Source of the DNA: Leucoraja ocellata
Taxonomy: Eukaryota
DNA: 64,000 nt
Direction of reading: 5' to 3'
Assembly: GCA_036785375.1 (NCBI GenBank)
Contig: JAWMAR010001538.1
Coordinates: forward strand, 62,001-126,000
In this document: piece after piece, positions 27,175 to 27,334 of the stretch
How the letters are laid out: every line of letters begins with the position of its first letter
Numbering within the stretch: position 1 is the stretch's first letter
The notes under the pieces: generated by a model
Seen by the model: the letters and a program-made list of their open reading frames with translations, nothing else
The model's database searches: none
Told to the model about the DNA's origin: nothing
Program-made: the position numbers and the translations under genes

Positions 27175-27334
27175 CGCCACCCCGACCCCCGCCGCCACCA
27201 GCGACTTGCGGCCGAGGCGCAGGGAGGATTGGGACCTCTCGCCCGGTCTCCTGGCGGGCGAAATCTTGCTGGTGTGGGTGGCGCCGGGACGGAGAGAGAA
27301 GTAATGAGGAAAGTCTGGGAAGGCAGCGGGGCTG

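Follow-up and report, generated by a model that had tools for sequence, protein, structure and literature searches.

The C1QL1 gene of Leucoraja ocellata, encoded on the (-) strand of the 64,000-nt stretch of DNA analysed here (the window), carries ahead of its canonical start codon a 30-codon in-frame candidate N-terminal extension (27175..27264, ∼3.1 kDa) whose peptide, as judged by sequence comparison, is homologous to the AUU-initiated extensions of vertebrate C1QL proteins. The explanation that best accommodates the evidence, and to which we assign a probability of roughly 0.7, is that a single C1QL1 mRNA would yield two proteins, one anchored and one secreted, by leaky scanning. Some of the scanning ribosomes may initiate at the putative upstream start, an AUU with A at -3 and GC-rich sequence behind it, as reasoned from orthologues and paralogues, and the remainder would proceed to the strong AUG to make a secreted short form, the two-exon product of 253 aa. 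The AUU-started product would comprise 283 aa and is predicted to stay in the membrane, with the cleavable signal peptide turned into an uncleaved type II anchor that would leave the N-terminus inside, and the collagen and C1q domains outside, the cell. That the AUU is used as a start at all is highly probable in the light of the sequence and of the known C1QL genes.

The original prediction placed the ATT at 27264-27262, with A at -3, exactly 90 nt before the ATG and in frame with it, and each of these points was confirmed on the (-) strand. The interval to the canonical ATG (27174-27172; strong context with G at -3 and G at +4) amounts to 30 codons in the same frame, with neither a stop nor an ATG between, and the extension translation given in the prediction was reproduced; two features absent from it are the T rather than G at +4 and a second in-frame ATT. 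The extension codons carry G or C at 27/30 third, 20/30 first and 20/30 second positions. As was also claimed, the ATT lies 3′ of a TATA box, namely the TATA-like TATATAAG at 27367-27360 (27360..27367 on the (-) strand), a putative core-promoter element ∼100 nt 5′ of the AUU. Part of this box is a TAA (27363-27361) that bounds the extension frame upstream as an in-frame stop, and the closest ATG 5′ of the extension on the (-) strand is at 27737; an upstream-AUG origin of the extension is thus ruled out. TATA boxes are spaced ∼30 nt from the transcription start, which would put the start of C1QL1 transcription near 27339-27335, some 70–75 nt 5′ of the ATT. The second in-frame ATT (27343..27345, (-) strand, G at -3) lies 22 nt past the first T of the TATA-like box and is expected to be unused, because by the same spacing it would probably be 5′ of the transcription start. 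It is contained in TCATTTC (27341-27347, (-) strand), which we take to fit the initiator consensus and which is only 22 nt from that same T. Other near-cognate codons in the frame are CTG at 27222 and 27201, and GTG at 27198 and 27180.

Taken by itself, the leader sequence is mildly unusual and proves little. All three frames of the 90-nt extension DNA are without stops, and when the 163-nt leader (69% GC) was dinucleotide-shuffled 5000 times, the 30 codons stayed open in 3991 cases, so the absence of stops was dropped as evidence. Of these shuffles, 2392/5000 contain a near-cognate codon that is in frame and has a purine at -3; for in-frame ATT the count is 314/5000 with a purine, and 110/5000 (∼2%) with A, at that position. 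Such counts make the local sequence a weak argument, and thus the case for an AUU extension rests on homology.

The homology was assessed in 44 of the 120 listed homologues (43 species-named rows together with P0007, nameless rows being omitted), the named rows having been picked by length or taxon. Gene models that begin further upstream provide at least 30 residues before the canonical Met in 23 of the 44 rows, which are related rather than independent, mostly teleost, and selected for an open leader. The 30-residue extension aligns to 22 of these 23, with at most 3/1000 shuffles reaching the score (z 3.7–8.2, 11–17 identities), the sole miss being P0038 (27/1000 shuffles). An Ile is found 29–34 residues before the Met in 21/23 rows, for an expectation of 0.145 per row; P0015 (-34) is counted but out of register, and P0038 and P0007 are without the Ile. 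P0007, the sole model of shark type to include upstream sequence, groups with shark proteins and is similar to the extension over its body (z 8.2). As the comparison is at the protein level, the codon for this Ile in the orthologues is not visible. The other two frames of the 90 nt score z -2.2 to 1.8 against the same rows, and for the 30 codons that precede the ATT, z stays below 2 in 15 of the 16 testable rows (exception P0014, z 2.6). The similarity is therefore frame-specific and begins at the Ile. A conserved basic motif, L-R-x-G-R-K (residues 15–20; 27205..27222, (-) strand, from the alignment), and the V/A/G-rich stretch before the Met are both present in the window extension, as in the C1QL family. 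All seven named shark/ray C1QL1 proteins examined begin at AUG, and a search with long-form residues 1–62 returned five matches, every one a shark/ray C1QL1 starting at Met and none of them extended.

The details of the two ends of the extension differ among paralogues. Its K-I-S-P start with T at +4 (27261-27267, (-) strand) is as in the teleost C1QL3-type rows P0014, P0023 and P0024, whereas most bony-vertebrate C1QL1 rows have Thr in place of Lys ahead of the Ile and read T-I. The G-V-A-M junction is common to the window, P0007 and human C1QL4. Both ends are possibly ancestral states, and an AUU context without the +4 G, of the C1QL3 kind, possibly represents the condition before the vertebrate genome duplications. 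The C1QL1/C1QL3 models P0010, P0011, P0013, P0014, P0018, P0022–P0024 and others contain the leader peptide by virtue of far-upstream AUGs or extra exons; the sequence 5′ of the Ile varies from row to row, which suggests mis-annotated starts in those public models.

The identity of the gene as C1QL1, given correctly in the original prediction, is drawn from its domains, its two exons and its relatives. Exon 1 coding sequence (26593..27174, (-) strand) encodes the signal peptide, a Cys pair, the collagen repeat and the first half of the C1q domain; a phase-0 GT-AG intron of 1994 nt follows (24599..26592, (-) strand), and exon 2 (24419..24598, (-) strand) completes the C1q domain and ends in a TGA stop. 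Pfam Collagen and C1q are both above the cut-off in the product. Among the 120 listed of 1071 homologues, the best are shark/ray ‘C1q-related factor’ (C1QL1) proteins; all top named matches listed bear that name, and the first of them is C1QL1 of the sawfish Pristis pectinata at 96% identity. In a tree of 31 rows, none of them named C1QL2 or C1QL4, the window protein groups with two batoid proteins (100/99) within a shark-and-ray clade (97/92), and every C1QL1 row is set apart from C1QL3 (100/99), a split that rules out assignment to C1QL3. The sawfish orthologue scores 294 bits with C1QL1 in the PDB, as compared with 284 for C1QL3 and 268 for C1QL2. Assignment to C1QL4 is disfavoured by a comparison made solely by eye, in which the window protein is nearer to the printed human C1QL1 than to C1QL4, the latter being without the linker before the collagen repeat that the window protein keeps. 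Two C1q-domain positions that are conserved elsewhere carry substitutions: residue 184 of the long form (exon 1) is F as opposed to Y in the 15 other aligned rows, and near 24441 ((-) strand) in exon 2 a T in the last C1q strand replaces the S of five shark/ray C1QL1 proteins. Candidate poly(A) hexamers AATAAA/ATTAAA are found at 22103, 22672 and 23414 ((-) strand), 1.0–2.3 kb past the stop codon. The region 24001-28000 is CpG-rich (observed/expected 0.68–0.74) throughout the gene body, in the intron as well as in the two exons.

The published record on mammalian C1QL extensions agrees with what the prediction said of it, as C1QL1–4 are all recorded as AUU-initiated, with the C1QL extension conserved in all vertebrates sequenced by 2011 (PMC3105428). 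The human C1QL1 extension (NM_006688; PMC3105428 Supplementary Dataset 1, entry 9) shares with that of the window the gene, the AUU, the length of 30 codons, the A at -3 and the ∼3 kDa that it adds; 15/30 residues are identical in an ungapped comparison counted by eye. It differs in having G at +4 where the window has T, and in ending in Val where the window ends in Ala. The C1QL3 and C1QL4 extensions (PMC3105428, PMC11317171) likewise have an Ile ∼31–32 residues before the Met, a basic cluster and a V/A/G-rich end. C1QL3, which in human has A at -3 and C at +4, resembles the window in its K-I start and non-G +4 base, although the coding sequence of the window groups with C1QL1; a purine at -3 is present in the window, and G at +4 is not family-wide. 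The available text of PMC11317171 and PMC11623489 (2024) describes conservation of the C1QL ATT down to lamprey and remarks on the basic and V/A/G-rich motifs of the extensions, with the basic motif called conserved in that of PMC11623489; a peptide from the human C1QL4 extension is recorded in the supplement of PMC11317171. In PMC9789052, human C1QL1 is one of seven genes for which GENCODE v35 has no annotated or intact extension.

The suggestion that the extension might turn the signal peptide into a signal anchor fits the charges, the hydropathy and the predicted helix of the long form. Residues 1–20 carry six positive charges and one negative charge, and are followed by 30 uncharged residues (21–50; 27115..27204, (-) strand) made up of the V/A/G-rich end of the extension and the canonical signal peptide, such that the signal peptide would be converted into an anchor of type II and escape cleavage. 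The number of 19-residue windows with hydropathy of at least 1.6 is 18 in the long form, versus four in the short form. AlphaFold predicts one helix over residues 13–45 with pLDDT 70–78 over residues 21–40, in a model of exon 1 only whose mean pLDDT of 44 makes it usable just for this N-terminal helix. Under the positive-inside rule, a type II signal anchor consists of a positive flank followed by a hydrophobic helix, and the long form is predicted to be built in that way, with a positive flank and an uncharged helix of at least 20 residues. The closest precedent is the long C1QL2 proteoform, a paralogue with an upstream AUU and a basic-then-hydrophobic extension predicted to turn its signal peptide into a signal anchor, for which experiment has demonstrated what would hold for C1QL1 of the window by analogy: long C1QL2 is abolished by mutation of the AUU, is membrane-bound and carries GFP to the surface, the signal peptide acting as an anchor (bioRxiv 2024.02.16.580719). 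In the same study, C1QL1/2/3 cDNAs gave two proteoforms each in HEK293T cells, and all four human long C1QL forms were predicted to be transmembrane. NPR/NPTXR (bioRxiv 2024.02.16.580719) also produces a membrane-bound and a secreted synaptic organiser from one mRNA by leaky scanning past a near-cognate codon, although the protein is unrelated and the codon is CUG.

Mammalian NPR/NPTXR further differs in having a very stable hairpin 10–12 nt behind the CUG, which is not evident behind the AUU of the window. RNA fold prediction leaves the AUU at 27264 mostly unpaired and the leader 5′ of it nearly unstructured. The 90 nt 3′ of the AUU fold with -45.4 kcal/mol and a z of -0.47 relative to shuffles, so a special hairpin immediately 3′ of the AUU is not supported, and of five regions folded against their own shuffles none was more stable than these. 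The most stable local fold starts ∼80 nt 3′ of the AUU and is a predicted 17-pair hairpin that would bury the canonical AUG (27144..27185, (-) strand; -21.7 kcal/mol, z -3.1, 1/200 shuffles as good), chosen post hoc as the best of 18 windows. Ribosomes held up at such a hairpin while scanning could form a queue that reaches back to the AUU. It is rather unlikely that the ray leader sets its own ratio of tethered to secreted C1QL1 through this hairpin and a C1QL3-like AUU context. Should the hairpin and its spacing be conserved in sharks and rays, the gene would allow a natural test of how evolution has shaped the balance between anchored and secreted synaptic organiser.

Observations that stand against the full model of an anchored AUU form and a secreted AUG form include a T at +4 that is weaker than the G of human C1QL1, the ordinary folding of the 90 nt behind the AUU, and the proof of a membrane anchor for C1QL2 rather than C1QL1. 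The last of these bears on an unlikely alternative in which the AUU form is made without becoming a surface anchor, either because the signal is still cleaved, with secretion altered, or because the long form is intracellular or degraded. The cleavage region is identical in the long form, and PMC11623489 argues that secretion is blocked when an extension precedes the signal peptide, with the products mostly degraded; it expects extended forms to be non-secreted and demonstrates no surface anchor. The same preprint nevertheless sets the C1QL extensions apart as a conserved exception, and the 30 uncharged residues that come after the conserved basic motif, the transmembrane predictions for the four human long forms and the membrane-bound long C1QL2 (bioRxiv 2024.02.16.580719) all argue for an anchor.

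The weak +4 base and the absence of unusual structure 3′ of the AUU would fit with an AUU that is barely used, or lies outside the mRNA, in this lineage, with the leader a relic or conserved for RNA-level reasons. This reading, which also agrees with the AUG starts of the named shark/ray proteins (7/7) and with the much weaker CUG initiation of NPR in fish and frog than in mammals (bioRxiv 2024.02.16.580719), is quite improbable. Only the in-frame peptide is conserved and its length is that of human; human C1QL3 is recorded as AUU-initiated despite being without the +4 G (PMC3105428). The position of the TATA-like box also argues against it, and annotation pipelines default to AUG. It is very improbable that translation of the leader begins mainly at a different near-cognate codon (CTG 27222/27201, GTG 27198/27180 or ATT 27345) and gives another extension. 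These codons are in frame and CUG is generally more efficient, but the similarity begins at the Ile and not 5′ of it, and the base at -3 is T for both CTG codons and C for GTG 27198. PMC11317171 cites one ribosome-profiling study in which CTG and GTG were called as the starts of C1QL3 and C1QL2, and adds that these alternatives are not conserved across the C1QL paralogues; the loss of long C1QL2 on AUU mutation (bioRxiv 2024.02.16.580719) is at odds with them as well.

As to reach, the claim that the mechanism extends back to cartilaginous fish is supported by the homology, whereas the novelty that it implied does not hold, as published work predicts the presence of the extension in this group from its conservation in all vertebrates then sequenced (2011) and in lamprey (2024). 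The extension of the window is in this sense already known: it is orthologous to a published feature, and its lineage falls between those of published cases. No case of a shark or ray C1QL1 AUU was found in the literature text searched; figures, supplements and subscription papers could hold one. As the literature already covers the AUU, how deeply the extension is conserved and the switch to a signal anchor, no new question is opened; C1QL1 of the window supplies the cartilaginous-fish case that was missing between lamprey and bony vertebrates for a published mechanism, and as a distant sequence it can help to define the anchor residues that matter. The AUG-only shark/ray C1QL1 models examined likely miss the 283-aa long form. 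What is new is minor, namely a weaker AUU context like that of C1QL3 and a possible hairpin over the AUG.

Outside this gene, no other protein-coding gene, neighbouring or elsewhere in the window, was found among the 142 of 352 unmasked ORFs of at least 50 aa that were scanned against Pfam; the scan gave two reverse-transcriptase fragments (13821-14075 and 53202-53474) and one sub-threshold match. Rfam returned no matches in the window. Self-repeated sequence makes up 22% of the window, and many of its ORFs are presumably LINE-like. Positions 1-1000 and 7001-8000 are CpG-rich (observed/expected ∼0.9); the scanned ORFs gave no Pfam match there, and 7600-8200 resembles 63550-64000 in translation, so that these two are probably repeats.
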